A DNA stretch of 16,187 bases from Candidatus Methanomethylophilaceae archaeon (GCA_034006405.1 JAVESW010000020.1:1-16187), one strand, 5' to 3'; counted from the stretch's first letter, positions 215 through 14,172 are shown. Numbers and translations: made by a program. The notes: a model not told the origin generated them from the letters alone.

Positions 215-1183
215 CTAAACAGCGACAAACATTTCCGATTTATTTGTTAATGTAGTTATTATAATACATATAATTTGGTATTCAAAAATGCGACTAAATA
301 CCTGCATCAAAATAACCAACGAGGAAGGAAAAACCCTCAACGGCATCGCCGAAAACCCCGGCTTCATCAGCCCCACCGACCTCATCACCGCCTGGGTCCA
401 CCCCCCCATCTGCAAAAAGGCAACATACGGCGAACCGTCCCCTGACCACGTCGCCGAACGGACGACATCATAATAATGACGCGAATATCTTAAGGGGACC
501 TGCTTCCCTTCCGGAAGATTTGCCACACTATGAAGGATGAGGATCTTTTCCCAGAACGTTCGTTCGGGATGTACGGTTAAAACATCGGTTGACTTTTGCC
601 CGAACAGGTTCGGATATTTTTCGGCAGAATACGGCTGGATCATCTCCCAGCCGGCTGGAGTGCATGCTGCAAGAGGACCTATCTCCAGACGTATCTCCTG
701 AAGGATCGATGCATCGGAAAAACCATTTGGATACCTGAAGATTATGGTCTGCTTATCATTATCCAGGATCCCCATATCTACCGAAATGCCAAGTTCCTCT
801 GACAAATCATTTCGGATCTGCGGGAGAAAGAGATCCTTGAGAAATATCTCTGCACGGCGGTCAGCCTCTTTGTTAAAGTGATCCTGCCGATTCTTTGTCC
901 GATCCTTCCAGGGTTCGTCTTTTTCATAATCCAGAATACACCAATCAAGAATCAGATCGATATCCTCAGAAAAACGATCAATCAGCCCGTATGCTTTTGA
1001 TAAACTCGTTCCTCCCTTGAAGGTCAGATTATTTTTCCAGGGACATTCGTGAAATAGATAATCCAGCATCCAGCAGACCCAGAAGTCTTTCTCAATAATT
1101 GCCTCATTGATCCCCATTTTGTCGGCAGTGTTCCTGAATAATGCTTCACGATCTTCTGCCGGGCGTTTTGCAATATTTTTCAT
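215..1183 (-). CDS. abiEii: AbiEii/AbiGii-family nucleotidyltransferase toxin (DUF1814) of a type IV toxin-antitoxin system
   Basis: 322-aa ORF with hallmarks of the family: N-terminal EKDFWVCWMLDYLF, the nucleotidyltransferase motif FKGGTSLSKAYGLIDRFSEDIDL, and a C-terminal RYSRHYYDV. Its start lies 6 nt after the stop of the upstream antitoxin-like gene on the same strand. The last ~25 aa (AT-rich, IICIIITTL...) may be read-through rather than true coding. Confidence 0.75.
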   Translation of the reverse strand: MKNIAKRPAEDREALFRNTADKMGINEAIIEKDFWVCWMLDYLFHECPWKNNLTFKGGTSLSKAYGLIDRFSEDIDLILDWCILDYEKDEPWKDRTKNRQDHFNKEADRRAEIFLKDLFLPQIRNDLSEELGISVDMGILDNDKQTIIFRYPNGFSDASILQEIRLEIGPLAACTPAGWEMIQPYSAEKYPNLFGQKSTDVLTVHPERTFWEKILILHSVANLPEGKQVPLRYSRHYYDVVRSATWSGDGSPYVAFLQMGGWTQAVMRSVGLMKPGFSAMPLRVFPSSLVILMQVFSRIFEYQIICIIITTLTNKSEMFVAV

Positions 1184-1189
1184 GGTTTT

Positions 1190-1795
1190 TTATGCACATA
1201 TTTGTCTGACCGTTCCGGAGATCCAGACAGATGAGCGCTTTGTGTCCTCTAAGAGGGATGTTTTTTCTCCAGGGGTGAGCCTGTCGGATAATTGTCTGAT
1301 GAATTTTTCATTCATCTTATCTTTTCCGATCGCTTTCAATGCCTGAATGATAAGTGCGGATTTTTCTGAAAGATTTGTGATGTCTTTATTTGATGTATGC
1401 TTGAATTGTATCGTGACATTTCCGTATGCGTATTTTTTGTAGGGGCCGTCGGAAGCATATGTCCATGAGGCGGGGACCTGGGTGGATATTCCGAGCATAT
1501 TGAGGGCAGCATCTTCATAGGGGACAATTGTCCAACCGAAATTGCGTGCAAGAGCTTTTGCTATTTCATGGGGCGAGGGAGCGACGTATTCATTAAGAAA
1601 TGTGTTGTAGGCGGGATATTCGTATATGCCCCACATGATCCGGCGGATCGTTTTGTCTTGAACTAGCCGTGATAATACTTTTTTTATCGTTGGGATCGGG
1701 GCGATGTCGGTAAAATCAGAGATGACGAATATTGTGCCTTTCTTTGATGTGGTTATTCGCTCTTTGATTTTTTCATGATAGGTTTCTTTCCGCAT
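1190..1795 (-). CDS. abiEi: AbiEi-like (DUF6088-type) antitoxin / transcriptional regulator partnered with AbiEii
   Basis: The ORF is open to 1843, but the likely start is the internal Met at 1795 (MRKETYHEKIKERI...). The TIFVISDF...VLSRLVQDKTIRRIMWGIYEYP stretch matches the N-terminal region of AbiEi antitoxins. Gene order (antitoxin immediately upstream, co-directional, 6-nt gap to toxin) is the canonical AbiE arrangement. An AT-rich TATA-like stretch (minus-strand aataatatata, about 1825-1838) sits just upstream. Confidence 0.6.
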   Translation of the reverse strand: MRKETYHEKIKERITTSKKGTIFVISDFTDIAPIPTIKKVLSRLVQDKTIRRIMWGIYEYPAYNTFLNEYVAPSPHEIAKALARNFGWTIVPYEDAALNMLGISTQVPASWTYASDGPYKKYAYGNVTIQFKHTSNKDITNLSEKSALIIQALKAIGKDKMNEKFIRQLSDRLTPGEKTSLLEDTKRSSVWISGTVRQICA

Positions 1796-1975
1796 TATCG
1801 TGCGTATAGTTATGTCACTAAAAGTATATATTATTGGTGACAAGAGGGAGTTTGTAATATGGAGTGGGGATAAGAAAAATCAACCGTGTTCGCCGACTAT
1901 CGGTTGGTTCTCCGATCCAGCCTGACTTTGACAGTTAGCTGAAAGTATCCAGAAGGCCCAACCGATAAAACTGAT

Positions 1976-2597: not shown

Positions 2598-2834
2598 TCA
2601 ACGCTCCTCATCTAATTCATCTACTCTTACTCTATCAGAAAGGGAACAGCGGTTCATTACCGGATCCCAGATTTCACAGGCATCTTTAAAACAGATTCCA
2701 GGAACCTGATCTAATGTTGCACAGTAACCGAGAGTAAATGGACACAATTTATGATTATTATCGGCAAAGACCATACGATTTGAGATATGGTCATACAGTT
2801 GGAGTCTGCCGTGTTCATCAGTCCATTTACGCAT
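2598..2834 (-). CDS. Small Cys-rich hypothetical protein (78 aa, 5 Cys), last gene of the minus-strand operon
   Basis: Its ATG (reverse complement of 2832-2834) lies immediately after the TGA of the upstream SPFH gene (2838-2840), implying translational coupling. The poly-T terminator follows. No recognisable family; it could be spurious. Confidence 0.35.
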   Translation of the reverse strand: MRKWTDEHGRLQLYDHISNRMVFADNNHKLCPFTLGYCATLDQVPGICFKDACEIWDPVMNRCSLSDRVRVDELDEER

Positions 2835-2837
2835 ATT

Positions 2838-4469
2838 TCATTCCTGTTTCTTCCCGCAGCTTGGACAGAAAACATCTCCGTTTGGAACATTCGCTGAACA
2901 GTATTGACATTGTGTACTTCCTTCAGGAGCGACATTAACAACAACCGGCGCCCCCATGCCCCCTGTAACAACGGTTGCCCCGGGATTTTGAGCCGTAGAG
3001 CGGGCAGTCGCCGTATTCCCCATAGCATTCAGCGCAGAATTCATTACCTCCTTCATCTGCTCGGCATTCTCCTTATATTGACTCTGCATCATCATGTTGA
3101 ATGCCTGCTGATCCTTGATGCGCAATTCGTTCAATTGTTCAACTGATTCAAGTTTGGCACGAGTTGCTAATGCCTCGGCAGCTGCCTTCGGGTCTTTTGC
3201 ATTCATCGCAAGGATCTGTTCTGGCGTCAGGCTGTTTGCTCTCTTTGCAAGTTCAAGCTGAACGAGGGCGCCGACCTTCTGATCATCGACCAGAGAAATG
3301 AGCACTTCGATCGATGCCTCTGAGAGATTTGCGATCTTTTGTCTCTCATCCTCGCGTTTGATCGCCTTGTTTTGTCTTTTGAACTCCAGTAGCTGCTCGA
3401 TCTCCTTGCGGTCTTTTTCCAGTTCGTGATCATGTCTTGCAGAATCACGAGCAAGCTCATGACCTAAATTCGCATCAGCTCTCTGGTTCCCCAATTCCTG
3501 ATCAAGGGATTTTATGGTATGGTCCGCATTAATCTGACCAACGGCATCTTCCGTTCCTGCTTCACGCAGATAGGCTTTCTTTTCATACTCTGCTTTGGCT
3601 TTGCCCACTTCGATCTGCAAACTCTCGCGTGCTCCAAGAACCTCTTTCCAGGCTCCTTCATCAAAACCCACACAGTTCAGATGAGAAATCTCTATACCCC
3701 TGTTACCAAAGTTTGCATTCAGATTTTTCTTGAACTCATTACTCAATTCCTGACTGAGAACTGCATTTCCGTACAGTTCTTCGATATTATATTGGGATAT
3801 TTTATTCTGGGCAATATTTTTGAGTTCTGCATGAATGCAGTTCTCGATGTCCGCAAGACTAACGTGCTGTTCACGTTTCAGATAGTTTTCAAGAAAAGCG
3901 ATCGGATCTTTGATCTGTGCCGTCACTTTACCTGCAGCTCCAACGGATATTGCATTCTTTGAGCGTAACTCACCTTTTGGAATCATGAAGGTGAGAGGAA
4001 TCTCTCCGGCATCAACAAGAATAACCGTTGTTCGCTCATCAAGTCTCAACTGACCAATGGTATCAAAGATGTTTCCAAGATTGTATGCGCCTGCAGGAAG
4101 TGTTCCTTTGTAAATTCCTCCCTGAAGAAGAATGGCTTTTGTTCCCTGTTCTACAGTGAGTCGTTTTGCAAAGACACCTCGGAGATCCTGAATATCAAAT
4201 CTCTGCGCGAAGTCGCCCGGCATTCTCATCCACTGACGATTTTTGCCTAGTTCTTTGGAGGTGTCGGCAATTCGTGTTGTTTGCGGCGATTCCAAGAGCT
4301 TTGCACCGCATTTTCCACAAAATGCAGCTCCCTGATTTAGTTTTGCACCACATACAGGACAGGTGCCACTTTCCGTTCCTCCAAGTCTTTTACCGCACGC
4401 TCCGCAAAACTGACTTCCGGCGGGGTTTTCATGACCACAGGAACAGGTAATTTTTTTATTAAACAGCAT
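2838..4469 (-). CDS. SPFH/Band-7 (stomatin/flotillin-like; Band_7_1 / YdjI-like) protein with N-terminal tandem zinc ribbons and a C-terminal zinc ribbon
   Basis: 543 aa. The N-terminus has three CxxC...CxxC pairs (CSCGHENPAGSQFCGACG, CPVCGAKLNQGAAFCGKCG). The C-terminus has CQYCSANVPNGDVFCPSCG. The central region follows the SPFH pattern (TTVILVDAGEIPLTFMIPKGELRSKNAISVGAAGKVTAQIKDPIAFLENY ... NFGNRGIEISHLNCVGFD), followed by a long E/A/K-rich, flotillin-like coiled coil. Start is ATG at 4467-4469. Confidence 0.6.
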   Translation of the reverse strand: MLFNKKITCSCGHENPAGSQFCGACGKRLGGTESGTCPVCGAKLNQGAAFCGKCGAKLLESPQTTRIADTSKELGKNRQWMRMPGDFAQRFDIQDLRGVFAKRLTVEQGTKAILLQGGIYKGTLPAGAYNLGNIFDTIGQLRLDERTTVILVDAGEIPLTFMIPKGELRSKNAISVGAAGKVTAQIKDPIAFLENYLKREQHVSLADIENCIHAELKNIAQNKISQYNIEELYGNAVLSQELSNEFKKNLNANFGNRGIEISHLNCVGFDEGAWKEVLGARESLQIEVGKAKAEYEKKAYLREAGTEDAVGQINADHTIKSLDQELGNQRADANLGHELARDSARHDHELEKDRKEIEQLLEFKRQNKAIKREDERQKIANLSEASIEVLISLVDDQKVGALVQLELAKRANSLTPEQILAMNAKDPKAAAEALATRAKLESVEQLNELRIKDQQAFNMMMQSQYKENAEQMKEVMNSALNAMGNTATARSTAQNPGATVVTGGMGAPVVVNVAPEGSTQCQYCSANVPNGDVFCPSCGKKQE

Positions 4470-4514: not shown

Positions 4515-5078
4515 TTAAATTCTAGGCTCCAGAATGAGATTTTCCACCTCAATCTTTGCAGAAGCAATACTTTCATCATCTACCCTTAGTGCTTTCATAA
4601 GACCCAGAATTTTATCATATTCATCAGATGATCCATTATTTGTTGTGGCAAGGATTTCAGTGATCCGCTTTTTTTCGGTTTCTGCCTGAACCTCCGTATT
4701 CTCACGCTCTTTCAACAGCTGATCTACATCGATCTTACTGAATATGTTGTGTTTTTGATGTGCCTGGTCTTTCTTTTCCTCTTTTATCCGTAGAAGATTT
4801 GCGACTGCCATCTGTTTGTTTTCGGTTGCGAGGATCTGCTGGAGGAGTTCATTTTTTATGAGCATTTGATTCGTTACTTGCCGGGCTGCAAACTGAGTTT
4901 CGATTTCTGATGCAGCATTTTTTCCTGCATAGAGATTTGCTTCAATTTTTTCGTCAGCTTCTTTCATTTGTTTCATAAGAGTGGAATATTGGTATTCCAG
5001 CTCAGCGGCCGTTATGCGCAGATCACCAGAGGAGATCTTGTCAAGGCCGTTTTTCCGTCCAAAGATCCCGCGGGCCAT
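4515..5078 (-). CDS. ESCRT-III/Snf7 (CdvB)- or PspA-like small coiled-coil protein, paralog 2
   Basis: 187 aa, starting MARGIFGRK (compare MxxFGK/MGIFSR N-termini of Snf7 and PspA). Predicted long helical hairpin, then an acidic C-terminus with an amphipathic helix (DEYDKILGLMKALRVDDESIASAKIEVENL) resembling a MIT-interacting motif. The ATG sits 2 nt after the stop of the upstream paralog, so the two are coupled. Assigned from architecture only. Confidence 0.45.
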   Translation of the reverse strand: MARGIFGRKNGLDKISSGDLRITAAELEYQYSTLMKQMKEADEKIEANLYAGKNAASEIETQFAARQVTNQMLIKNELLQQILATENKQMAVANLLRIKEEKKDQAHQKHNIFSKIDVDQLLKERENTEVQAETEKKRITEILATTNNGSSDEYDKILGLMKALRVDDESIASAKIEVENLILEPRI

Positions 5079-5080
5079 TT

Positions 5081-5698
5081 TTAGAACTCACTTTTTTCTA
5101 AGGATTTTTCGATGTCTTTCTCGATCGAGAGCATGCTTTCCGCTTCGGATACATTCATACTGCCTGCCTCAACACTGTTCCAGATATCAAACATCTGCCT
5201 TTCTCCTTCGTCAACATCAGAATCAGAAGCCGTGGTTTCGTCAAGTGCAACGATGTTGTTGAGATTTTCGAGAACTTTCTCAAAATTATTCCCGGACAGG
5301 TTGACTTTGATGAGGGACTCCTCGAAGCTCTTAGGAGAGAGACTCTGAATTGTTTTCCAGATCTGAGTGTTCTCCAGATCACGCTGATACGTTTTGAGGA
5401 TGAGGAGGTTGGACACAAACATGTACTGTTTGTGTAAGGTCAGGAAGTTCTTGATTTTGAGTTTTCCGCTCATATCAAGTTGTTTTAACTCCTGCGCGAT
5501 CATCTTTTTCTTGATCAGATCGGCTCCTATACCCTCATTAAAAAGGGATTTTTTCGCTTTTTCAATTGTCTCGATCTCTTTTCTGAGACGATTGATCCTG
5601 ATTTTGAGTCTGAGCTCTTCTTCCTGGAGTTCTGTGCTCGTGAATTTGTCGATCGCAGTATTTTTTTTGAACGGATTTTTCAGTTCCATTTTTGTCAC
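5081..5698 (-). CDS. ESCRT-III/Snf7 (CdvB)- or PspA-like small coiled-coil protein, paralog 1
   Basis: 205 aa. The ORF begins with GTG at 5698 and the first ATG is at 5689 (MELKNPFKK...). It has a basic N-terminal helix (ELRLKIRINRLRKEIETIEKAKK), a second long helix, and a strongly acidic C-terminus (DETTASDSDVDEGERQMFDIWNSVEAGSMNVSEAESMLSIEKDIEKSLEKSEF), typical of ESCRT-III autoinhibitory/MIM tails. A minus-strand TATA-like atttatatc (5722-5730) lies about 25-35 nt upstream. Confidence 0.45.
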   Translation of the reverse strand: MTKMELKNPFKKNTAIDKFTSTELQEEELRLKIRINRLRKEIETIEKAKKSLFNEGIGADLIKKKMIAQELKQLDMSGKLKIKNFLTLHKQYMFVSNLLILKTYQRDLENTQIWKTIQSLSPKSFEESLIKVNLSGNNFEKVLENLNNIVALDETTASDSDVDEGERQMFDIWNSVEAGSMNVSEAESMLSIEKDIEKSLEKSEF

Positions 5699-5828
5699 AA
5701 GGATTTCATTGGTTTTTCATCGATATAAATCTATTCTCCAAAACGGATTATAAATATAATAACCTTAAAATCGAATGTCCAATGTGGTGATAGAAATATA
5801 TAGTCATAAAACATATTCCTTATTTAAT
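5699..5828. promoter_or_regulatory. AT-rich divergent promoter region between the minus-strand ESCRT-III-like/SPFH operon and the plus-strand TPR/MIT-AAA/Sel1 operon
   Basis: TATA-like boxes on both strands (5722-5730 for the minus operon; ttataaatataat at 5748-5760 and gaaatatatag at 5794-5804 for the plus operon). Their spacing is consistent with leaderless or short-leader archaeal transcripts starting at 5689/5698 and at 5775 or 5829. Confidence 0.4.
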
Positions 5829-6344
5829 ATGGATTATCTGATTTTGGTAGATTATCAGTCCGATGCGGAGCGTAAACGGATAGATTACGCTATTGAACGC
5901 TGGAAGGATAAGGGGAAAATACATAAAACGAAAGGAACGGTGATCCATTATGCCGGAGATGATGTGGATGATTTTCTTGATGATCTTTATTCCCGTCTGA
6001 GTGTTGGAACCGGATCCGTTCATATTTTTGCAGGAGACATCTATTCTCCTGATATCAATGAGCAAACAACCCAGCTGAAATATACTACGACTATAGATTC
6101 AACTGCGGTTGAGAATTTCCTGAAATATCTCATGAATAAACTCGGGGCTTCGTTCGAAGGAACAAAACAGGGAATCAAATCATATACCGCATACACAAAG
6201 AAAGGACAGGCAGGGATCGATGTTACTTTAACGGCTGGAGATAAGACGGCTGTTTTAGTTGTTGTGCGGGGGTACGGGGACGTAGTTTCGTTTATTGCTG
6301 GGAGAATCGATAAGGAACTGAAGGTTTTCCTAGAGGTAGAGTGA
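5775..6344 (+). CDS. Hypothetical protein, first gene of the plus-strand operon
   Basis: 189-aa ORF. An alternative leaderless start at ATG 5829 (MDYLILVDYQSD...) is equally plausible. The stop (6342-6344) lies 3 nt before the next ATG (6348). No family recognised; the N-terminal YLILVDYQSDAERKRIDYAIERW has only a faint Cas2-like flavour. Confidence 0.55.
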   Translation: MSNVVIEIYSHKTYSLFNMDYLILVDYQSDAERKRIDYAIERWKDKGKIHKTKGTVIHYAGDDVDDFLDDLYSRLSVGTGSVHIFAGDIYSPDINEQTTQLKYTTTIDSTAVENFLKYLMNKLGASFEGTKQGIKSYTAYTKKGQAGIDVTLTAGDKTAVLVVVRGYGDVVSFIAGRIDKELKVFLEVE

Positions 6345-6347
6345 ACA

Positions 6348-7082
6348 ATGATAAAAACTGAACGCTATCAAATTTTGTACAATGAAGGCAGAATGAATTT
6401 GAACAGAGGAAGATACACGGATGCTCTCAAATCATTTGAAAATGCAAGACGCGAATTGGATAATTCATATGTATATTCCGGAATTGGGCGTGCATATTAT
6501 GGTCTTGGAAAATACAGCGATGCTCTGAAAAATTTTGAAATAGCATGCATGAGATACTCTGGAAATATTCAGGCAACTCACTGGATGGCAAAGACTCTCG
6601 GAAAAATGAAGCGCTATAACGAGGCTGAAACACTGTTTAATGTGGTGTTGAGAAGATTAGGGAACGGGCCTGTAAATTTCTATCAGGAAGTCTTTGCCGA
6701 CTATGAAGATATGAAAAATGAAAGAGCTGGAATCAAACCTAGGGATTCGTTTTCTCAACCTCTGATGTCATATTCTTTGAACAAAGATTCGTCTACAAAA
6801 ATAATTTTCAACGGTGATATTTCTGCCCCTGTAAATATTGGGGGAGTCCAGGCAACTGATAACGCAATACTGAATCGTCCGGTAATAATGAGAGAGCCCG
6901 GTACTGGCTGCAATGTCCCAATTGAACAAATCATCCAAAGATCCGAAGAGCGAAATACCGTGGATATAAAACCAACAGGTATCCTTTCACGTATTATTAA
7001 GAAAGAAACGTGTGCGAATTGTGGGGCACCGACTCAGGAAGATCAACACTATTGTAACAAGTGCGGGAGGAAACTCCAATGA
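6348..7082 (+). CDS. TPR-repeat protein with a conserved C-terminal linker motif (GGVQATDNAILNRPV) and a C-terminal zinc ribbon (CANCG...YCNKCG)
   Basis: 244 aa. The N-terminal ~120 aa hold three TPR-like units (YTDALKSFENA..., YSDALKNFEIA..., YNEAETLFNVV...). The C-terminal CxxC-x10-CxxC motif is at the end. Its TGA forms an ATGA overlap with the downstream AAA ATPase start. Confidence 0.75.
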   Translation: MIKTERYQILYNEGRMNLNRGRYTDALKSFENARRELDNSYVYSGIGRAYYGLGKYSDALKNFEIACMRYSGNIQATHWMAKTLGKMKRYNEAETLFNVVLRRLGNGPVNFYQEVFADYEDMKNERAGIKPRDSFSQPLMSYSLNKDSSTKIIFNGDISAPVNIGGVQATDNAILNRPVIMREPGTGCNVPIEQIIQRSEERNTVDIKPTGILSRIIKKETCANCGAPTQEDQHYCNKCGRKLQ

Positions 7083-8248
7083 AAATCGATCTCAGCGGAC
7101 CTCTATATGATGCCCTGAAAAAAGCCACCGCAGAGTATGCATCCCTGATTGAGAAAAATGACCTTCCCGGAGCCACAAAAAAAGCTGCTGAGATCGCGAG
7201 GTTCTATCATGAACTTGCAAACATGAATCCCGTGAACAAAAAAGAATATCTCGAGCGTGCAGCAAAATGGGAGAGAGTATCATCTGGAAAAATACGATCA
7301 AAACAAAAACCGTCCCAGTCACCTCATACTGAAACCGAGAAAGAAGAGGAAAATGAAATGAGCCAAAAAGCCTCCTCTCTTATCAAGACCTCCAATGTCA
7401 AATGGTCCGATATCGGCGGGCTTGATTCTGTAAAAAAACTGATGATGGAAACGGTGGTGATCGCAGGTCTCCAAAAACCCGAGTCCATCAAACCCTGGAA
7501 AGGCATTCTTCTCTTTGGACCTCCGGGGACCGGGAAAACCCTTCTTGCGGCTGCGGCGGCAGGAAGTCTGCATGCAACCTTCTATGATGTGAAATCGGAG
7601 AGTGTGCTCTCAAAATATTTCGGTGAATCTTCAAAACTGATTTCTGCGCTCTACAACTCGGCAAGAGATCACTCCCCCTCGATCGTTTTCATTGATGAGT
7701 TCGATGCTCTCAGTCAGTCCCGGGACGGGGAAACAAGCGAGGCGACGCGTAAAGTCCTCTCCAGCCTCCTTACAGAATTGGATGGGCTTTCCGACAAGAA
7801 AAGTGATCAGCTTCTCCTCACTCTTGCAGCGACAAATACCCCGTGGGATCTGGATACAGCAGTTTTATCCCGTTTTCCACGGCGGATCTATGTTCCTCTT
7901 CCGGATCAGAAAGCGTGTAAGGAGATCATAAAGATCCAGACAAAAGGCATGGACATCTCAGGAGTTTCTCTTGAGAGCATTTCCGAAAAGTGTGCGGAGA
8001 TGCTCTACTCAGGACGGGATATTTCCAACTTCTGTCAGCAGGCGATATGGACGATGATCCATAGAGTGAACCCAGATCTCTACAAAATGGCTGAATTATC
8101 ATTTGATGAACTGAAAATGCGGAATTTGCAGACGATCCCTCTTGCTGATGATGATTTTCGTGAAGCTTTTATGAAGATCCGCTCACCAATAACAAAAAAT
8201 AAGATTGAACAATACGAACAATGGAACGATGAGTGTGGTGAAGTGTAA
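7079..8248 (+). CDS. Vps4/CdvC-like meiotic-clade AAA+ ATPase with an N-terminal MIT domain
   Basis: The ORF track starts at GTG 7061, but ATG 7079 has a strong GGAGG at 7066-7070 and forms an ATGA overlap with the upstream stop. The N-terminal ~70 aa (LYDALKKATAEYASLIEKNDLPGATKKAAEIARFYHELANMNPVNKKEYLERAAKWERV) fit the three-helix MIT pattern of Vps4. The AAA core has Walker A GPPGTGKT and Walker B IVFIDEFDAL, and the Vps4/katanin-specific stretch LAATNTPWDLDTAVLSRFPRRIYVPLPD (compare Vps4 [28 protein letters not shown]). Confidence 0.85.
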   Translation: MKIDLSGPLYDALKKATAEYASLIEKNDLPGATKKAAEIARFYHELANMNPVNKKEYLERAAKWERVSSGKIRSKQKPSQSPHTETEKEEENEMSQKASSLIKTSNVKWSDIGGLDSVKKLMMETVVIAGLQKPESIKPWKGILLFGPPGTGKTLLAAAAAGSLHATFYDVKSESVLSKYFGESSKLISALYNSARDHSPSIVFIDEFDALSQSRDGETSEATRKVLSSLLTELDGLSDKKSDQLLLTLAATNTPWDLDTAVLSRFPRRIYVPLPDQKACKEIIKIQTKGMDISGVSLESISEKCAEMLYSGRDISNFCQQAIWTMIHRVNPDLYKMAELSFDELKMRNLQTIPLADDDFREAFMKIRSPITKNKIEQYEQWNDECGEV

Positions 8249-8250
8249 AG

Positions 8251-9864
8251 ATGGGATTTAGCTTTTTTAATAAGGAAAAACGAGCAGCGGAACAGTACAC
8301 GAAAGCAGCAGAACAGGGAGATGCACGTGCACAATTCAATCTTGGAGTGTGCTATGCCCTTGGGATGGGGGTGGAGAAAGACCAGAAAAAAGCGGTATAT
8401 TGGTACACGAAAGCAGCAGAACAGGGACATGCAGATGCACAAAATTATCTCGGGTTGTACTATGATTTTGAGGATGAGGAGAAGGATAGGGAGGAGAAAG
8501 AATGGGTTTCCAGTACAAGAGCAAGGGCAGAACAGGGAGATGCTGATACACAAAATCATCTCGGGATGTGCTATGACTTTGAGATGGGGGTGAAGAAAGA
8601 CCAAAAAAAAGCGGTATATTGGTACACAAAAGCAGCGGAGCAGGGAAATGCGTTTGCACAAAATTTTCTCGGTGAGCACTATAAGGGGGGTGTGGGAGTG
8701 GAAAAAGACCAGAAAAAAGCGGTATATTGGTACACAAAAGCAGCAGACCAGGGAGATGCACGTGCGGGATATGCACGTGCACAAGTCAATCTCGGGGTGT
8801 GCTATGAGAGGGGTGTGGGGGTGGAGAAAGACCCGAAAAAAGCGATATATTGGTACATGAAAGCAGCAGAACAGGGAGATGCTGATGCACAAGTCAATCT
8901 CGGGGTGTGCTATGAGAGGGGTGTGGGGGTGGAGAAAGACCCGAAAAAAGCGGTGGAGTGGTGGACAAAAGCAGCAGAACCACGCCCAACATTATCGAGA
9001 GATGTAGTAGACCCGGGAAATGAAGAGGCACAAACCAATCTCGGGTGGTGCTATGAAAATGGGGTGGGTGTAGAAAAAGACCAGAAAAAAGCGGTGTATT
9101 GGTACACAAAAGCAGCAGACGAGGGAGGTGAACGTGCAGGATATGCACGTGAGGGATATGCACGTGCACAAAATAATCTCGGGTTGTGCTATGAAAATGG
9201 GGTGGGGGTGGAGAAAGACCAGAAAAAAGCAGTATATTGGTACACGAAAGCAGCAGAGCAGGGAAATGCAATGGCACAAGATAATCTTGGGAGGTGCTAT
9301 GAGAGGGGTGTGGGGGTGGAGAAAGACCTGAAAAAAGTTGTATATTGGTACACAAAAGCAGCGGAGCAGGGACATGCTGATGCACAATTCAATCTCGGGT
9401 CGTGCTATGAGAATGGGGTGGGTGTGGAAAAAGATCTGAAAAAAGCGGTGATGTGGTTTACCAAAGCAGCGGAGCAGGGAAATGCACGTGCACAAACTAA
9501 TCTAGAGTTGTGTTATAAGAATGGGGTGGAAAAAGACCAGAAAAATGCGGGATATGGTTACACGAAAGAAGCAGAACAAGGAGATGCTGATGCACAAACC
9601 AATCTCGGGTTGTGCTATGAATTGGGGGAGGCGGTAGAAAAAGACCTGAAAAAAATTGTGTACAATGTAAACTATTTTTCGGCGGAAAAAATAATTCAAG
9701 GAAATATCGGTGTCTATGCAACAGATGATGCGATCGTCCATCGTCCGGTTGTGGGTGAGAAGGGATCAGATGATCCGAAAAATATCTTTTGCCCGTATTG
9801 CGGCAGACAACTTCCAGACGATGCAAGATTCTGCACTGGGTGCGGAAAACAAATTAGTGGATAA
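8251..9864 (+). CDS. Sel1-repeat (SLR) protein with about 13 tandem repeats, the conserved linker motif (GVYATDDAIVHRPV) and a C-terminal zinc ribbon (CPYCGRQLPDDARFCTGCG)
   Basis: 537 aa. The canonical Sel1 consensus recurs (AQxNLGxCYExGxGVEKDxKKAVYWYTKAAEQGxAxAQ). Its ATG is 3 nt after the AAA ATPase stop, so they are coupled. The many antisense ORFs over this region are artefacts of the DNA-level tandem repeat. Confidence 0.85.
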   Translation: MGFSFFNKEKRAAEQYTKAAEQGDARAQFNLGVCYALGMGVEKDQKKAVYWYTKAAEQGHADAQNYLGLYYDFEDEEKDREEKEWVSSTRARAEQGDADTQNHLGMCYDFEMGVKKDQKKAVYWYTKAAEQGNAFAQNFLGEHYKGGVGVEKDQKKAVYWYTKAADQGDARAGYARAQVNLGVCYERGVGVEKDPKKAIYWYMKAAEQGDADAQVNLGVCYERGVGVEKDPKKAVEWWTKAAEPRPTLSRDVVDPGNEEAQTNLGWCYENGVGVEKDQKKAVYWYTKAADEGGERAGYAREGYARAQNNLGLCYENGVGVEKDQKKAVYWYTKAAEQGNAMAQDNLGRCYERGVGVEKDLKKVVYWYTKAAEQGHADAQFNLGSCYENGVGVEKDLKKAVMWFTKAAEQGNARAQTNLELCYKNGVEKDQKNAGYGYTKEAEQGDADAQTNLGLCYELGEAVEKDLKKIVYNVNYFSAEKIIQGNIGVYATDDAIVHRPVVGEKGSDDPKNIFCPYCGRQLPDDARFCTGCGKQISG

Positions 9865-10474
9865 TTATTCCATCTTTATCCCGTCATGTTTTTGCCTGCT
9901 CTCCTCGCGGCGTGTCTTTCTTACAATGACTGGGTTCAGCATACACAAACGCTGCATCCTGGAGCAAAGCGAGCGAAACGAAGCGGAAAGCAAGGCTTTG
10001 CCTTGCGCACTGCCTTGTTCAATTTTGAGACCTTTCAGGTCAAGCTGCCTCTGAAATTCCTGCCAAACCAATTTGTCAACGCCTGATTCGGACATGCGTT
10101 CCCGAAATAACCAGATCGTTGAATTGTCAGGTATTTTGTCAGGACACACAAGAGGCCGCAAGCTAGAACTTGCTCACCGTTTCGGGCTAATGCCCTCACT
10201 TACAATGCCAAAAGGAGAGACGATCATAGATTTCACGTTCAACGGCGAGATCAGACAGATTATACCAGACTACCAGAAGCTGAATCTTGAACATGAGTAT
10301 TACATCGACATTGGGATGACCGCCTTTGTCGGATTTGTTCGAATACATGGATTCAAGAAGAGGGCGAAACACATCCCAATCAAGAGTTTTACCAACGTCG
10401 GAGAGACGGTCGCCAAGTTTTTCATAACGCTCGTGATATGCCTGGTTGAGACCAAAACTGCTGAAAGTCCCCAT
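9865..10474 (-). pseudogene. Remnant of an IS5-family (DDE) transposase gene: N-terminal portion only, split across two frames
   Basis: 10196..10474 (-) encodes the InsH-like N-terminal domain (LDWDVFRPLLESMYSNKSDKGGHPNVDVILMFKIQLLVVWYNLSDLAVEREIYDRLSF). 9865..10161 (-) continues in another frame with the IS5 signature PDNSTIWLFRERMSESGVDKLVWQEFQRQLDLKGLKIEQG. Similarity is then lost where the GC-rich hairpin repeat (9990-10006) sits. The catalytic DDE region is absent. Confidence 0.6.
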
Positions 10475-10517
10475 ACATAAGAGCCAACGTACGGAGAGAA
10501 AGTACTTTCTGTCAGAA

Positions 10518-10524
10518 AAAAAGG
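10518..10524 (-). terminator. T7 tract on the minus strand, about 40 nt downstream of the TIR-protein gene stop
   Basis: A7 on the plus strand at 10518-10524. Archaeal oligo-T terminator. Confidence 0.35.
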
Positions 10525-10560
10525 TTGTTAGAAATTCTCTTATTTGTTTCTTTGATGATA

Positions 10561-12897
10561 TTATTTAAATGGATTGTATGTCAGCGATATTAACCAACTG
10601 AGAGGCATACTAAGTATGAATCCACATATTGGTCCTCCAATCCATACACTTACTACTTGAATCCAGCCAGGAATATTCCATCCATCACCCTGTGTACCCA
10701 TAACAATTGCAAACACAATAAACATAACTACCACCATGCCAATAACTGTAACCCCAATATCAGACGCTTGTTGATGATCTCGGCTCATGGAAATGTACTC
10801 ACCACGCTTCTTATGCATGTATGACAGAGTATCTTTTGCATCTTTGTATTTTGAATACTCTTTTAATGATGATACGGCTTTATTATAATTATTGGTAAAA
10901 GCATTCTTTGCATAATTATAATTATCCTGATTATCCTTTATAAAGGAGTTCTGAATTAACAAATTTAAATAATCATCAAATTCAGAACGTATTGAGACAC
11001 ATACATGTTTACATTGTTCTTTACGTATTGGTTCTAAACATTGCTGAGCTAACTCACTTGAGTCCCTGTAACCATCCAGTGAAATAAATAGTGTTTGAGC
11101 ACGTGAATAATCACCAGATTCCATCGCTCTCTTTGCATCTATATAAATCCTCTCAGTATCCAGAGCGAGACATTTATTCGCCAGTTCAGACGAATCCTTA
11201 TAATTCCCTAAGGAGAGGGATTCATTCCGAGCACGGATATAGTCACCACCATTCATTAAAGCAATTGTATCTTTGTATTTTTTTTCAGTCTCCAACTCGA
11301 TACATTTTTTCACCAACTCTGCTGAGTCCTTGTACTCTTTTAACGATAAAAATACTTCACGGGCACTAAGATAAACCCCCATATTCATCATATTGATTGC
11401 ATCCGTATATTTCTTATCAATATCCAGTGCCGTACATTTCTTTGCCAGTTCAACTGAATCTTTATAACCCTTTAATGATTCAAAAATACCACGAGCAGTT
11501 ATATAATAGCCACCGTTCATAGTATTTTTTGCATCTATATAAATCCTCTCAGTATCCAGAGCGAGACATTTATTCGCCAGTTCAGACGAATCCCTATGGT
11601 CTTTGATTTTAAGGAATTTCTCCCTCGCCTCCATAAATTTATTGGAATTCAGGATTTCCTTTGCTTCAGCATACCAGACATCATGATTCTGATAGAGATA
11701 CTGTTCAAGAGTCTGTTTATACTCTGCATCAGCAAAACGAATGGCTTTCTTAAATAGGTCTTCATCCCGCAAATATATTTTAAGTTTTGTTAATTCATCT
11801 GGCGTGCGGACATTTTTTTGAACCATCAGTTTTCCTATGTAGGCTTGTGAGTATTCGGGATCGAAATCCAATGCTCGCTCAAGTAATTCATCTGCCCTGC
11901 TGATTTCTCTTTCCTCTAAGAAAAGGAAAGCACGTTTTACTAAGGGTGCTGCATTACTATCTGATTTTGAAGATGCAGATGCAGCAGATGTTTGTTCTGT
12001 TCCAACCAGTTTTTTCAGATTTCTGGTTAAATCAGGCATAAACGCAATATTAGACATATCCAACGCTTGAAGATGTGAGAACTCATCCGGCAAATCATAT
12101 GCATCCATATCCCTGAAACAAGGAATAAGAGTTTTTTTCTGACTCTTATCTATTTTCATCATGTGCAAATAACGTGACCACTCATTTTTAACCCAGATGG
12201 CATTGAAATATTCCTGCCTCGTTCCAAGAACAAGCATCACTTTTGCAGAAGATAAAGCTGCATAAATATATGGTTCATATTCTACACCAAGCTTGTCTTC
12301 AAGTGTGATAGCAGCATAGAACGTTTTCAAACCAGAATTAGTCAGTTCATGATAAATTTCATTGGCAATTACGCTGTCACGTGTTTTCTGACCATTTTCA
12401 TCTTTTTCCTTGTAACAGATAAAAACATCAAATGGCTTCTCAGATTTAACAATATCTAGAATCTTTCGTTGGAGATCATTGATTTCTTTTGCCTGAATCT
12501 CATAAACCAACTTGGCAGTTGAATCTGCATTCTGAAGTGTAGCAATGTAGTCTGAGTCAGTTAAAATAGATTCGAGTTGTGTTCTATGACATGTTGGGTG
12601 TCTGTTTCCAGTTTGAGTATCCTCAACATATTCTACACCATACTTACATAGAACAATCCCCCAATGTGCCTCTGCTTGAGTGTTATCAATGTCTAAAATT
12701 TTTTCATAAGCATCAACTGCTTTATCAAATTCACATTTTATGCGTAGATTATTTGCACGGTTGAAAAGATTGATGACAATATCATCACCACTTGTTGAAA
12801 GGGTCTGTTCCGTACCGCAATTATCACAAATGATAACTGAAACACCATTTGGAACATCCAAATTGCCACCACACATTTTACATTTGAATTGTGTCAT
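10561..12897 (-). CDS. Multidomain protein: N-terminal zinc ribbon, TPR-like helix pair, TIR domain, at least five tandem 44-aa repeats, and two C-terminal transmembrane helices
   Basis: 778 aa. Zinc ribbon: CKMCGGNLDVPNGVSVIICDNCG. TIR signature: FDVFICYKEKDENGQKTRDSVIANEIYHELTNSGLKTFYAAITLEDKLGVEYEPYIYAALSSAKVMLVLGTRQEYFNAIWVKNEWSRY. The 44-aa repeat recurs as YKDSxELAxKCxxLDxEKxYxDAxxxMNxGxYxxARxxFxSLxx. C-terminal hydrophobic stretches are VTVIGMVVVMFIVFAIVMG and IQVVSVWIGGPICGFILSMPLSWLISL. The region is AT-rich compared with upstream genes. Confidence 0.8.
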   Translation of the reverse strand: MTQFKCKMCGGNLDVPNGVSVIICDNCGTEQTLSTSGDDIVINLFNRANNLRIKCEFDKAVDAYEKILDIDNTQAEAHWGIVLCKYGVEYVEDTQTGNRHPTCHRTQLESILTDSDYIATLQNADSTAKLVYEIQAKEINDLQRKILDIVKSEKPFDVFICYKEKDENGQKTRDSVIANEIYHELTNSGLKTFYAAITLEDKLGVEYEPYIYAALSSAKVMLVLGTRQEYFNAIWVKNEWSRYLHMMKIDKSQKKTLIPCFRDMDAYDLPDEFSHLQALDMSNIAFMPDLTRNLKKLVGTEQTSAASASSKSDSNAAPLVKRAFLFLEEREISRADELLERALDFDPEYSQAYIGKLMVQKNVRTPDELTKLKIYLRDEDLFKKAIRFADAEYKQTLEQYLYQNHDVWYAEAKEILNSNKFMEAREKFLKIKDHRDSSELANKCLALDTERIYIDAKNTMNGGYYITARGIFESLKGYKDSVELAKKCTALDIDKKYTDAINMMNMGVYLSAREVFLSLKEYKDSAELVKKCIELETEKKYKDTIALMNGGDYIRARNESLSLGNYKDSSELANKCLALDTERIYIDAKRAMESGDYSRAQTLFISLDGYRDSSELAQQCLEPIRKEQCKHVCVSIRSEFDDYLNLLIQNSFIKDNQDNYNYAKNAFTNNYNKAVSSLKEYSKYKDAKDTLSYMHKKRGEYISMSRDHQQASDIGVTVIGMVVVMFIVFAIVMGTQGDGWNIPGWIQVVSVWIGGPICGFILSMPLSWLISLTYNPFK

Positions 12898-12964
12898 AGT
12901 TTATCATCATATATCTATATTATATCTCAAGGTTATTTTATATTTATTATCAGAATGATTATTA

Positions 12965-13008
12965 TAGAGTCTGTCCAATCGTAATGTGAATCTGTTGGAC
13001 AGACTCTA
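12965..13008. promoter_or_regulatory. Perfect 14-bp inverted repeat (tagagtctgtccaa-N16-ttggacagactcta) in the AT-rich divergent intergenic region between the TIR-protein gene and the Sel1 paralog. Candidate operator.
   Basis: Seen directly at 12965-12978 and 12995-13008. Both flanking genes are transcribed away from it, so it is not a terminator. It is surrounded by TATA-like AT-rich sequence. Confidence 0.35.
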
Positions 13009-13090
13009 CTAAATTATATAAAACACATCAGATATTTAATATGAATAATATACATAATAACTAATATTGATATTATAAGAGGTTATTAAA

Positions 13091-14062
13091 ATGTATCCGA
13101 GTGATTCAACCACAAACTTATCTGACAAATTTAATAATGAGAATAAACATGATGAATTGGAAAAGCAATTAGCATTATATTCCTGTTATTTGGATGGCTC
13201 ATGCGGATTTGAAAAAAATCCTGAAAAAGGACTATCATTAATTATTAAAATTGCAGAACAAGATAATGTAAATGCCCAGATTCTGTTAGCTGCCCTATAT
13301 TATGCAGGTGAGAAAGTTAGATTGAATCCAGAAGCTGCTTTCTATTGGTACTCTAAAGCAGCAGAACAAGACAATACAACTGCACAGTATAAATTAGGCT
13401 ATTTTTATAAAAATGGAATTGGTGTTGATAAAAATCTTCAAATATCAAAATATTGGTATACTAAAGCAGCAAAGAAAGGACATACAGTATCACAAAAAGA
13501 ACTTGGTGATATTTACAAAAAAAGTAATAATGTAGAAGATTTAATATCAGCTATTTATTGGTATACTAAAGCAGCAGAACTTGGAAATATAGATGCTCAA
13601 AATTCATTAGGAATTTGTTATGCTAATGGAACCGGTGTTGAAGAAGATGCTGAAAAAGCAGTATCTCTATTTACAAAAGCGGCCAAAAAAGGAAATGCTG
13701 ATGCACAGTATAATTTAGGAATATGTTATTTCAATGGATTCGGTGTTGATAAAAATAAAATAAGAGTTAAAGAATGGATTGAAAAATCAATAGAACAAAA
13801 CTACGAGCCTGCACTTAATTTTGCTGAAAATCATCCAGAACTTAATTTCAAAAATACACAAAGCATAGTCTCTAATATTTACAATGTAACTGGAGATTAT
13901 ATTCAGGATAACCATGGTGTTATTGCAAAAGATGATGCCATAGTATATCGTACAAATCTAAATAATGAACAAGCTACCACCCCATCTTTTTGTTCTCAAT
14001 GCGGATGTCCGGCAATAACAGGTGACATATTCTGCAGAAAGTGTGGTGGAAAATTACAATGA
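13091..14062 (+). CDS. Sel1-repeat protein paralog with the conserved linker motif (GVIAKDDAIVYRT) and a C-terminal zinc ribbon (CSQCGCPAITGDIFCRKCG)
   Basis: 323 aa. Sel1 consensus units (AQYKLGYFYKNGIGVDKNLQISKYWYTKAAKKGH..., AQNSLGICYANGTGVEEDAEKAVSLFTKAAKKGNADAQYNLGICYFNGFGVDKN). Same domain order as 8251..9864, but with a strongly AT-biased codon choice. Confidence 0.85.
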   Translation: MYPSDSTTNLSDKFNNENKHDELEKQLALYSCYLDGSCGFEKNPEKGLSLIIKIAEQDNVNAQILLAALYYAGEKVRLNPEAAFYWYSKAAEQDNTTAQYKLGYFYKNGIGVDKNLQISKYWYTKAAKKGHTVSQKELGDIYKKSNNVEDLISAIYWYTKAAELGNIDAQNSLGICYANGTGVEEDAEKAVSLFTKAAKKGNADAQYNLGICYFNGFGVDKNKIRVKEWIEKSIEQNYEPALNFAENHPELNFKNTQSIVSNIYNVTGDYIQDNHGVIAKDDAIVYRTNLNNEQATTPSFCSQCGCPAITGDIFCRKCGGKLQ

Positions 14063-14172
14063 ATGTATTCTATTATAATATAGATTGCAATAGAATACAT
14101 ATGATGATATTGTAAGGATTTTGATAGAAGTAAATGCAATTCTGAATAAAAACGAATGATACACATTCCAAG

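Follow-up and report, generated by a model that had tools for sequence, protein, structure and literature searches.

ESCRT-like systems (endosomal sorting complexes that are required for transport) of euryarchaea have been catalogued by computational analysis (Makarova et al. 2024, mBio, PMC10936438). In the 'Main' clade of these systems, Vps4 and ESCRT-III are accompanied by arCOG08177 and arCOG09748 proteins and often by a kinase and a phosphatase, and the 'Meth_adaptin' clade has an SPFH–coiled coil–zinc ribbon protein. The arCOG08177 protein was described as an inactivated Cas2 domain joined to a TBP/DUF3568 domain, and the interactions of the euryarchaeal components were said to 'remain to be elucidated' (PMC10936438). 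Here, we analysed a stretch of 16,187 nucleotides, referred to as the window, which was deposited under Candidatus Methanomethylophilaceae archaeon (GCA_034006405.1, JAVESW010000020.1:1-16187) and carries a Methanocorpusculum-type ESCRT-like locus, a system already catalogued computationally in 2024, and we focused on a short C-terminal module, the tail, shared by 3 of the proteins encoded in it. The window resembles the described euryarchaeal systems in its SPFH–coiled coil–zinc ribbon protein and its arCOG08177-type protein, and it also encodes a Vps4-like AAA ATPase and apparently ESCRT-III-like proteins. It differs from them in that tail-bearing proteins occupy the variable positions; no arCOG09748-like winged-helix protein was found among the open reading frames (ORFs) of the window or of the related Methanocorpusculum parvum locus, as judged by domain content, and the window showed no adaptin-appendage protein.

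What appears to be new here is the motif of the tail, its pairing with a zinc ribbon and its spread over unrelated N-terminal heads. The motif is in no Pfam or NCBIfam model and does not appear in the ESCRT literature examined, including the parts of PMC10936438 available to us; in those parts of its text and supplementary text, Sel1 proteins are unmentioned and TPR proteins occur in other contexts, with no common C-terminal motif. On balance, the sequences favour a role of the tail as a portable tag by which proteins dock to, or engage, the Methanomicrobiales ESCRT-like membrane-remodelling machine. Its carriers are probably accessory or client proteins, the variable part of a system made up of an SPFH protein, 2 ESCRT-III-like proteins, an arCOG08177-type protein and the Vps4-like AAA ATPase. 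A common docking or targeting function had been proposed in the initial annotation of the window, and the conservation, portability and strong neighbourhood association of the tail speak for it, whereas the TIR protein, put forward there as one possible partner, does not hold up as a general one (see below).

The tail and its carriers

A common motif followed by a zinc ribbon had been annotated at the ends of 3 proteins, all encoded on the plus strand, and this was borne out by regular-expression, tail BLASTP and Pfam analyses. Protein A (244 aa, 6348–7082) has a TPR head (Pfam TPR_2/TPR_1) and a type-A tail, in which the core motif GGVQATDNAILNRP (6840–6881, located by six-frame regular-expression search and tail alignments) is followed by a long linker, the conserved type-A element GILSRII and the C-terminal zinc ribbon (CANCG...YCNKCGRKLQ, 7011–7079). 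Protein B (537 aa, 8251–9864), which starts 3 nt past the stop codon of the AAA gene, consists of 9 Sel1 repeats and a type-B tail, with the extended motif IVYNVNYFSAEKIIQGNIGVYATDDAIVHRP at 9655–9747 (core at 9709–9747) and the C-terminal zinc ribbon (CPYCG...FCTGCGKQISG) at 9790–9861. Protein C (323 aa, 13091–14062), encoded in an AT-rich island next to the TIR gene, carries 5 Sel1 repeats and a divergent tail with the core motif GVIAKDDAIVYRT (13916–13954) and a C-terminal zinc ribbon (CSQCG...FCRKCGGKLQ, 13991–14059). The repeat scaffolds had been described as differing in type, which is correct for TPR versus Sel1, but there are 2 types among the 3 proteins, not 3.

In all 3 proteins, G-V-x-A-[TK]-D-[DN]-A-I-[VL]-x-R precedes a single C-terminal CxxC-Xn-CxxC zinc ribbon. 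Across the six frames of the window, the expression A[TKS]D[DN]A[IV][VLI].R matches solely at 6852–6878, 9718–9744 and 13925–13951, each time upstream of a terminal CxxC-X10-CxxC (7011–7064, 9790–9843 and 13991–14044, respectively). The ribbons of A, B and C score 24.4, 33.3 and 17.3 bits against Zn_Ribbon_1 (PF13240), with only B above the gathering cut-off of 25 bits. The similarity among the tails, which the initial annotation had allowed might prove insignificant, is significant in BLASTP comparisons of the tails alone (E=1e-6 for A versus B and 2e-9 for C versus B). Furthermore, synonymous codons differ between the motifs of A, B and C, indicating that the similarity is kept at the protein level and does not stem from a recent DNA copy.

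Related loci extend this picture considerably. As read from the sequences, the tail is a bipartite module composed of a β-prone linear motif of about 28 residues, a linker of 10–50 residues and one Zn_Ribbon_1 at the extreme C-terminus. The near-invariant core of the motif is G-[VI]-x-A-[KT]-D-D-A-[IV]-[VL]-N-R-[PAS], and its logo reaches 3–4.3 bits per column between G(-5) and R(+6), whereas the flanks vary. The last approximately 23 residues form an ordinary Zn_Ribbon_1, CxxCG-x7-8-[FY]CxxCG; compared with the Zn_Ribbon_1 and DZR families (PF13240, PF12773), the ribbon is thus an ordinary member, whereas the upstream motif is foreign to the other zinc-ribbon proteins sampled. Several types of tail can be distinguished. 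Type A (IIIYGDNNAPVNxGG[IV]QATDDAILNRP, a linker of 30–50 residues, G[IF][IF]S[RK]IF and the ribbon C.[ND]CG...YCN.CGRKL[QE]) ends small TPR proteins or a multi-pass membrane protein; the carrier genes, 1–3 in number, always lie between those for arCOG08177 and the AAA ATPase. Type B (NVTYLSAETxIQGN[IV]GVYA[KT]DDAIVNRP, a short linker and YCPxCGxKLPxxARFCxGCGK) occurs on Sel1 proteins with a very variable number of repeats, encoded directly after the AAA gene. A further type, HYHVTGSFFAGNVGVLAKDDAVVNRANIG, is found on a 461-aa TPR protein, and other types exist, including that of protein C.

Altogether, at least 6 unrelated kinds of head carry the tail: TPR, Sel1, multi-pass membrane (L009, 3018–3941), PKD and Flg_new single-pass membrane, helical and β-helix-like. 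Of the single-pass proteins, the one in locus L036 consists of 4 Flg_new repeats, a transmembrane helix, a coiled coil and the tail, and that in L034 of a signal peptide, 2 PKD domains, a transmembrane helix and the tail; basic residues after the transmembrane helix in both indicate that the tail is cytoplasmic. The Sel1 repeats of protein B itself (8260–9662) are 108-nt units that are 60–86% identical in DNA, and homologues of B span 396–736 aa, so that the repeat number appears to shift fast between otherwise close loci.

The specificity of the motif was assessed with a hidden Markov model (HMM) of the motif only, from which the zinc ribbon had been removed and which was run on all ORFs of the related loci L001–L043. 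It gave 81 matches in L001–L038 and the window; with L039–L043 included, the search for further carriers proposed in the initial annotation amounts to 48 distinct tails in 43 related loci. All 48 are C-terminal and each is followed by a single zinc ribbon. Members score 53–65 bits, compared with at most 2.4 bits for about 185 unrelated zinc-ribbon proteins, a set taken from 38 short ones and the 150 top-ranking matches of the complete HMMER scan. The alternative that the motif is common background in zinc-ribbon proteins does not agree with this absence, nor with the neighbourhood linkage described below. Searches with the complete tail are far less discriminating. In an HMMER scan with the tail profile, multi-zinc-ribbon proteins dominate, and 3 of the best 150 of 16,284 matches (E<=0.001) have the motif, with weaker single-copy members falling below the cut-off. 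Similarly, word-index searches with tail alignments returned short generic zinc-ribbon proteins, save for the fragments P0001 and P0152, and give little information on distribution.

The tail is rare among sequenced genomes. With the strict pattern A[TK]DDA[IV][VL][NH]R[PAS], 5 confirmed loci were found among 185,579 species genomes (one genome per species) and 23 in metagenomes, all of methanogen type and all with tail genes of the family; the near-identical locus is present in at least 16 metagenome contigs, and no relatives were found among the viral contigs scanned. One of the 5 species loci belongs to the isolate M. parvum XII, and the rest are on short contigs of metagenome-assembled genomes (MAGs), several with implausible bins. 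The MAGs in which contigs of the locus have been deposited are labelled Acholeplasmataceae, Bacilli, Paludibacter, Cloacimonetes and Methanomethylophilaceae (including L012 and L013), which probably reflects mis-binning.

The M. parvum locus (L011) has the same gene order as the window, with core proteins 78–92% identical (AAA 78.5%, SPFH 92%): SPFH–zinc ribbon (543 aa), 187-aa and 204-aa proteins on one strand, and, diverging from them, a 187-aa protein, TPR-tail (282 aa), AAA (394 aa), Sel1-tail (625 aa) and TPR-tail (461 aa). The gene for the last of these takes the place of the DUF772 remnants and the TIR island that follow the Sel1-tail gene in the window. For M. parvum XII, Table S1 of Makarova et al. 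(PMC10936438), as far as it was available, lists one Vps4 (arCOG01307) and one SPFH protein (arCOG15283, 'ESCRT system component'), at the level of the genome and not tied to the genes of L011. The general order is SPFH, E3a and E3b (the 2 ESCRT-III-like candidates) in one direction and arCOG08177, tail, AAA, tail and, in some loci, a further tail in the other. Wherever a contig extends far enough, the AAA gene has tail genes next to it, with 5 of them around it in L009, and across all related contigs of sufficient length tail genes neighbour the AAA or the SPFH gene; the exception is gene C, which lies 5 kb off in the same neighbourhood.

Heads and tails evolve separately, as comparison of their sequences shows 2 opposite trends: paralogues within L009 have heads 29% and tails 76% identical, whereas orthologues of L009 and L011 have heads 83.5% and tails 54% identical. 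It is therefore the locus, not the head, that tails follow, which is what co-evolution with, or homogenisation against, a shared partner would predict.

A degenerate form of the motif extends beyond Methanocorpusculum and its close relatives, to which the clear motif is confined, into other Methanomicrobiales. Loci in Methanoplanus endosymbiosus, Methanoculleus and Methanocalculus, reached through homologues of E3b, retain the core genes. Those of Methanoplanus and Methanocalculus also encode a Ser/Thr kinase (β-propeller or NHL; PEGA repeats in Methanoplanus), and that of Methanoplanus a PP2C phosphatase, as in the 'Main' clade of Makarova et al. The carriers in these genera are a conserved helical protein of about 300 aa encoded downstream of the SPFH gene, with a helical domain of about 200 aa, and a β-helix-like protein. 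Both end in 1–3 looser copies of the motif (x-D-S-[IV]-[IVLM]-N-R-S; for example, GVQVIDSIMNRAGI, GIQVYDSVVNRSAVGG and AVISDSIINRSTI×3), followed by one zinc ribbon. The general form is Q-[IV]-[IV]-Y-x-h-x-G-G-x-h-x-h-G-x-G-h-x-h-x-D-[DS]-[AS]-[IVL]-[IVLM]-[NS]-R-[SPAT]. Methanocorpusculum loci lack the helical carrier, and the TPR protein at position A in Methanoculleus is tail-less; placement of the tail on TPR and Sel1 proteins hence looks like a development of the Methanocorpusculum lineage from an older module.

Candidate receptors and competing explanations

If the tail is a docking tag, it would tie diverse heads to one invariant component of the machine, with the TPR and Sel1 solenoid heads binding other proteins and the PKD and Flg_new membrane heads being extracellular. 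The AAA ATPase is the receptor that we prefer, albeit tentatively and largely by analogy. Its gene (7061–8248, plus strand, likely start ATG at 7079) lies between genes A and B and is translationally coupled to both, which is the first argument in its favour. The end of A overlaps the AAA start in the sequence ATGA, with a GGAGG ribosome-binding site inside the last codons of A (7040–7082), whereby the true AAA start is probably ATG 7079 and not GTG 7061, and B begins 3 nt past the AAA stop codon. No variation in DNA is seen across loci (the window, L009 and L011) in the codons that end the type-A zinc ribbon (…TGCGGGAGGAAACTCCAATGA), and the CGRKLQ ending is under dual constraint, as protein and as the ribosome-binding site and start of the AAA gene.

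The second argument is the layout of segment, linker and C-terminal handle, which copies that of ESCRT-III subunits, recruited by Vps4 through a C-terminal handle and engaged by it at a segment further upstream. The third is the resemblance of the core D-A-I-V-N-R to the yeast Vps2 peptide DEIVNKVL, and the fourth is the conserved Vps4-type pore loop K-Y-F-G-E-S. DEIVNKVL lies in the Vps4 groove as a β-strand, and the class 1 and class 2 pockets of the groove tolerate acidic and basic side chains, respectively (PMC12254338, PMC5716660); the invariant D and R of the motif, 5 positions apart, would be fit for an acidic residue in a class 1 and a basic one in a class 2 pocket. Accordingly worded as a mechanism, the motif might enter the AAA pore as an extended β-strand, like DEIVNKVL in Vps4, and the zinc ribbon might act as a C-terminal handle bound by an MIT domain, that is, as an MIT-interacting motif (MIM), as in ESCRT-III subunits. 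The presence of 1–3 motif copies in the distant homologues suggests multivalent binding to an oligomer. In the AlphaFold2 model of protein C, the Sel1 solenoid has a predicted local distance difference test (pLDDT) score above 90 and the zinc ribbon about 70, whereas the motif segment (residues 257–295), predicted to be disordered alone, has about 32, a modelled value that is consistent with a linear motif becoming ordered on binding.

Comparison with known recruitment elements shows similar logic and different sequences. MIM1 is an amphipathic helix with the consensus (D/E)xxLxxRLxxL(K/R), and MIM2 is a Pro-rich strand. The tail and the MIM/Vps2 elements, of which the MIM type recruits clients to Vps4, are both short and C-terminal, with the engagement segment tens of residues ahead of the handle. 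In the tail, however, the handle is a zinc ribbon rather than a helix, the carriers are not ESCRT-III subunits, and no MIT domain is detectable by sequence. A match to MIM1 or MIM2 was rejected on inspection of the logo, the motif G-h-x-A-K/T-D-D-A-I-V-N-R-P containing neither LxxRLxxL nor a Pro-rich run, and the SHP-box consensus was likewise rejected by inspection. Short motifs on varied heads that converge on one hub are well known, as in the SHP box, VIM and VBM of Cdc48/p97 adaptors and the DPF/W and FxDxF motifs of clathrin accessory proteins; the tail would follow a similar logic, with no sequence relationship to them.

A bolder version, which we hold with less confidence than the choice of the AAA ATPase, is that the tag is a client or cargo address, the first recognisable in a prokaryotic ESCRT system, and that its carriers, soluble TPR/Sel1 adaptors and membrane proteins with PKD or Flg_new domains on the outside alike, would be handed to the Vps4-like ATPase or to the SPFH–ESCRT-III assembly, the ATPase pore taking hold of the motif as it does of DEIVNKVL in Vps2. 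Were this so, the system would be a sorting or extraction machine with a client list readable from the genome. Already as a near-invariant, portable element, the tail defines a candidate client or adaptor repertoire by sequence, provides a peptide, such as GVYAKDDAIVNRPVV, for binding and pull-down experiments and suggests a link between the machine and membrane proteins with extracellular adhesin-like domains. Should the receptor be the Vps4-like ATPase, recruitment would follow a code other than MIT–MIM.

Several observations weigh against docking to the machine, or against the ATPase as its receptor. The initial annotation had set the tail in the context of an SPFH protein, ESCRT-III-like proteins and an AAA ATPase with an MIT domain, and this context is essentially right, but the N-domain of the ATPase gives no MIT match in Pfam (E<=10) or in PDB sequence searches. 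The resemblance to DEIVNKVL covers 6 residues and came to notice only after the fact. Many sequences are reportedly admitted by the Vps4 pore (PMC12254338), and a near-invariant 12-residue motif fits a structured binding site better than such a promiscuous pore. The low pLDDT of the motif comes from a 7-sequence alignment and may mean shallow data, not disorder. In Methanoculleus, the tail-less TPR protein at position A indicates that the system can use untagged TPR proteins, and in L034 the tail-bearing membrane protein is on a 2.7-kb contig with no system genes visible. Finally, all core components co-occur in all long loci, which gives no choice between the AAA ATPase, arCOG08177, SPFH and ESCRT-III as the receptor.

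Docking to the same machine through a receptor other than the AAA ATPase, namely the TBP-like domain of the arCOG08177-type protein, by analogy with the adaptin appendage, a platform for short motifs that many accessory proteins have in common, or the SPFH protein, is unlikely but is the strongest of the alternatives. In all long loci, the first tail gene has the arCOG08177 gene immediately upstream, and the second domain of the arCOG08177 protein has been assigned to the TBP fold that the adaptin appendage also has (PMC10936438). The SPFH gene, for its part, is present in all long loci and is followed, directly in L036, by the gene of the tail-bearing Flg_new membrane protein and, in other Methanomicrobiales, by that of the ancestral carrier of about 300 aa; the SPFH protein itself ends in a conserved G[AS]TVV..GG..P[VI][VI][VI]N and a zinc ribbon. 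This C-terminus, however, gives no match to the motif HMM, and the tightest gene coupling, by overlapping or abutting frames on both sides, is to the AAA gene.

Distinctly less probable is homotypic co-assembly, in which the tails would bind each other through β-strands or a β-solenoid and form a mixed scaffold that the AAA ATPase could dismantle. The HET-s and BASS amyloid signalling motifs, present at the N-terminus of an NLR/STAND protein and the C-terminus of an effector and forming a β-solenoid amyloid, are the obvious precedent: like them, the tail has a short, β-prone, G/N-rich motif on neighbouring genes, with 2–3 pseudo-repeats in some carriers. The alternation of hydrophobic residues with G/N turns (IVYNISGGSVNLGNGVQVIDSIMNRAGIG), the 2 or 3 pseudo-repeats with short linkers in distant homologues, the presence of the same motif on several adjacent genes, its predicted disorder in the monomer model and the greater likeness of tails within one locus than between orthologues would all suit such an assembly. 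Unlike in the HET-s and BASS systems, no STAND/NLR partner was found by Pfam among the window genes and the related loci showed none, every copy is C-terminal, and the motif has a zinc ribbon behind it; moreover, most Methanocorpusculum tails have a single copy, and a recognition site would account better for the invariant acidic and basic residues and for the Pro that comes next to the motif on its C-terminal side.

It is highly improbable that the tail has no specific function, being a generic zinc ribbon and linker that paralogues inherited and that gene conversion or the duplication of cassettes kept homogeneous. Zn_Ribbon_1 is indeed very common, as the 16,284 library matches to the tail profile illustrate, type-A tails are near-identical in DNA within and between loci, and the loci bear scars of duplication, namely a chimera of AAA residues 1–69 with arCOG08177 residues 130–189 and an 83-aa remnant of the AAA N-terminus. 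Yet A, B and C differ synonymously while the residues are kept, the conserved part is the motif rather than the zinc ribbon or linker, the motif is absent from unrelated zinc-ribbon proteins, and its degenerate form persists across genera on unrelated heads.

Hardly credible is a link of the carriers to the TIR protein or to anti-virus defence of the island: C adjoins the TIR gene in the AT-rich island, an AbiEii/DUF6088 pair lies at the left end of the window, the Sel1 repeat number is highly variable (ORFs of 157–736 aa) and the AAA ATPase gives IetA-family matches in PADLOC, but PADLOC finds no system, these matches being generic AAA similarity, the TIR protein has a zinc ribbon of another type and lacks the motif, and TIR is confined to the window lineage (the window and L001–L006), with none in M. 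parvum or any other tail locus, which also removes it as a general partner of the tail.

Core genes and other features of the window

The AAA ATPase has a single AAA domain and a helical N-domain of about 70 aa and scores 125.8 bits against AAA, 20.5 bits against Vps4_C (cut-off 21.3) and 186 bits against NCBIfam CdvC (cut-off 650). Its pore loop 1 (SKYFGES) does not vary within the family and conforms to the Vps4/meiotic-clade type K-[WY]-x-G-E. Directly upstream of A, the 189-aa arCOG08177-type protein (5775–6344, plus strand; inactivated Cas2-like N-domain and TBP/DUF3568-like domain) contains AERKRIDY and QTTQLKYTTT...NKLGASFEGT, as does, by eye in the machine-read text available to us, the M. 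bavaricum row for arCOG08177 in Fig. S3 of Makarova et al. (2024).

The 2 ESCRT-III-like candidates are encoded on the minus strand. E3a (187 aa, 4515–5078) is a small coiled-coil protein presumed to be ESCRT-III-like by position and size. E3b (205 aa, 5081–5698) appears to be ESCRT-III-like from its model, which falls short of proof: its AlphaFold2 model (mean pLDDT 74) shows short helices coming after a long α1–α2 hairpin, and the 9 best Foldseek matches in PDB are Sulfolobus CdvB/CdvB2 (E 0.13–0.5, probability up to 0.96). Searches of Pfam (E<=10), NCBIfam, PADLOC and PDB sequences found nothing for E3a, E3b (no Snf7 or other Pfam match), the 189-aa protein (no Pfam match) or the AAA N-domain, with the sole weak exception of CdvB for the E3b profile (E=1.3). 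The E3b family is present across Methanomicrobiales, where its NCBI name, 'chromosome assembly protein', looks like a misnomer.

Traces of rearrangement are visible around the AAA gene in related loci. In L015 (2398–2781) and L042 (8155–8538), an intact ORF of 121–128 aa, located between extra tail genes, fuses AAA residues 1–69 to arCOG08177 residues 130–189 and looks like the tandem-duplication junction of an arCOG08177–tail–AAA unit. L009 contains an 83-aa remnant with an AAA-like start, MKIDLSGPL (2804–3055), and, after its tail genes, a zinc ribbon–transmembrane–PEGA-repeat protein (8925–10331).

The SPFH/Band_7 protein of arCOG15283 type (2838–4469, minus strand), a candidate receptor as discussed above, contains a coiled coil and 2 N-terminal and 1 C-terminal zinc ribbons (Band_7, 40.9 bits against a cut-off of 23.6; DZR and Zn_Ribbon_1 are matched as well). 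The zinc ribbons annotated on the SPFH and TIR proteins are thus present, that at the SPFH C-terminus without the motif and that of TIR of another type. Consideration of the SPFH C-terminus as a fourth tail was abandoned, the zinc ribbon being present and the motif absent. In all genera, SPFH C-termini (2838–2990 in the window; L039–L043) have a conserved G[AS]TVV[TAS]GG…P[VIT][VI][VI]N and then a zinc ribbon, which parallels the layout of the tail (a β-prone stretch and a ribbon) with a different sequence. Directly downstream of the SPFH gene, a 78-aa Cys-containing ORF with no family match (2598–2834, minus strand) is matched in position by a gene called at 78 aa on each of the Methanocorpusculum scaffolds L042 and L043 and may be a further conserved component.

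Remnants of a DUF772 transposase (9865–10480, minus strand) separate B from the island that follows. As annotated, the island is AT-rich: the GC fraction is 0.29–0.30 at 13001–14000, compared with 0.43–0.50 at 7000–10000, and 0.29–0.38 over its whole extent (10500–14100), which holds the TIR protein and protein C. The former is a zinc ribbon–TPR–TIR–repeat–transmembrane protein (10561–12897, minus strand), a lineage-specific cargo of the island outside the conserved system, and its gene contains 3 internal 164-nt repeats (11038–11597) and encodes a hydrophobic C-terminus.

The left end of the window holds a gene pair (215–1843, minus strand) made up of an AbiEii toxin-like gene, which scores 109.6 bits in Pfam, and a DUF6088 gene. 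The AbiEii match spans positions 3–170 of the 238 of the profile, and the C-terminal third of the ORF looks unrelated, suggesting a frameshift or truncation. Between this AbiE-like pair and the ESCRT-like locus lies a large GC-rich near-palindrome (2018–2461). Complementarity is 93% for its 73-nt arms and 90% for the nested 51-nt arms. Transfer RNA and Rfam scans of the window, the near-palindrome included, were empty. Strings similar to those of the near-palindrome, peptide-like in appearance, occur at the edge of the M. parvum locus, and it may be a repeated element.

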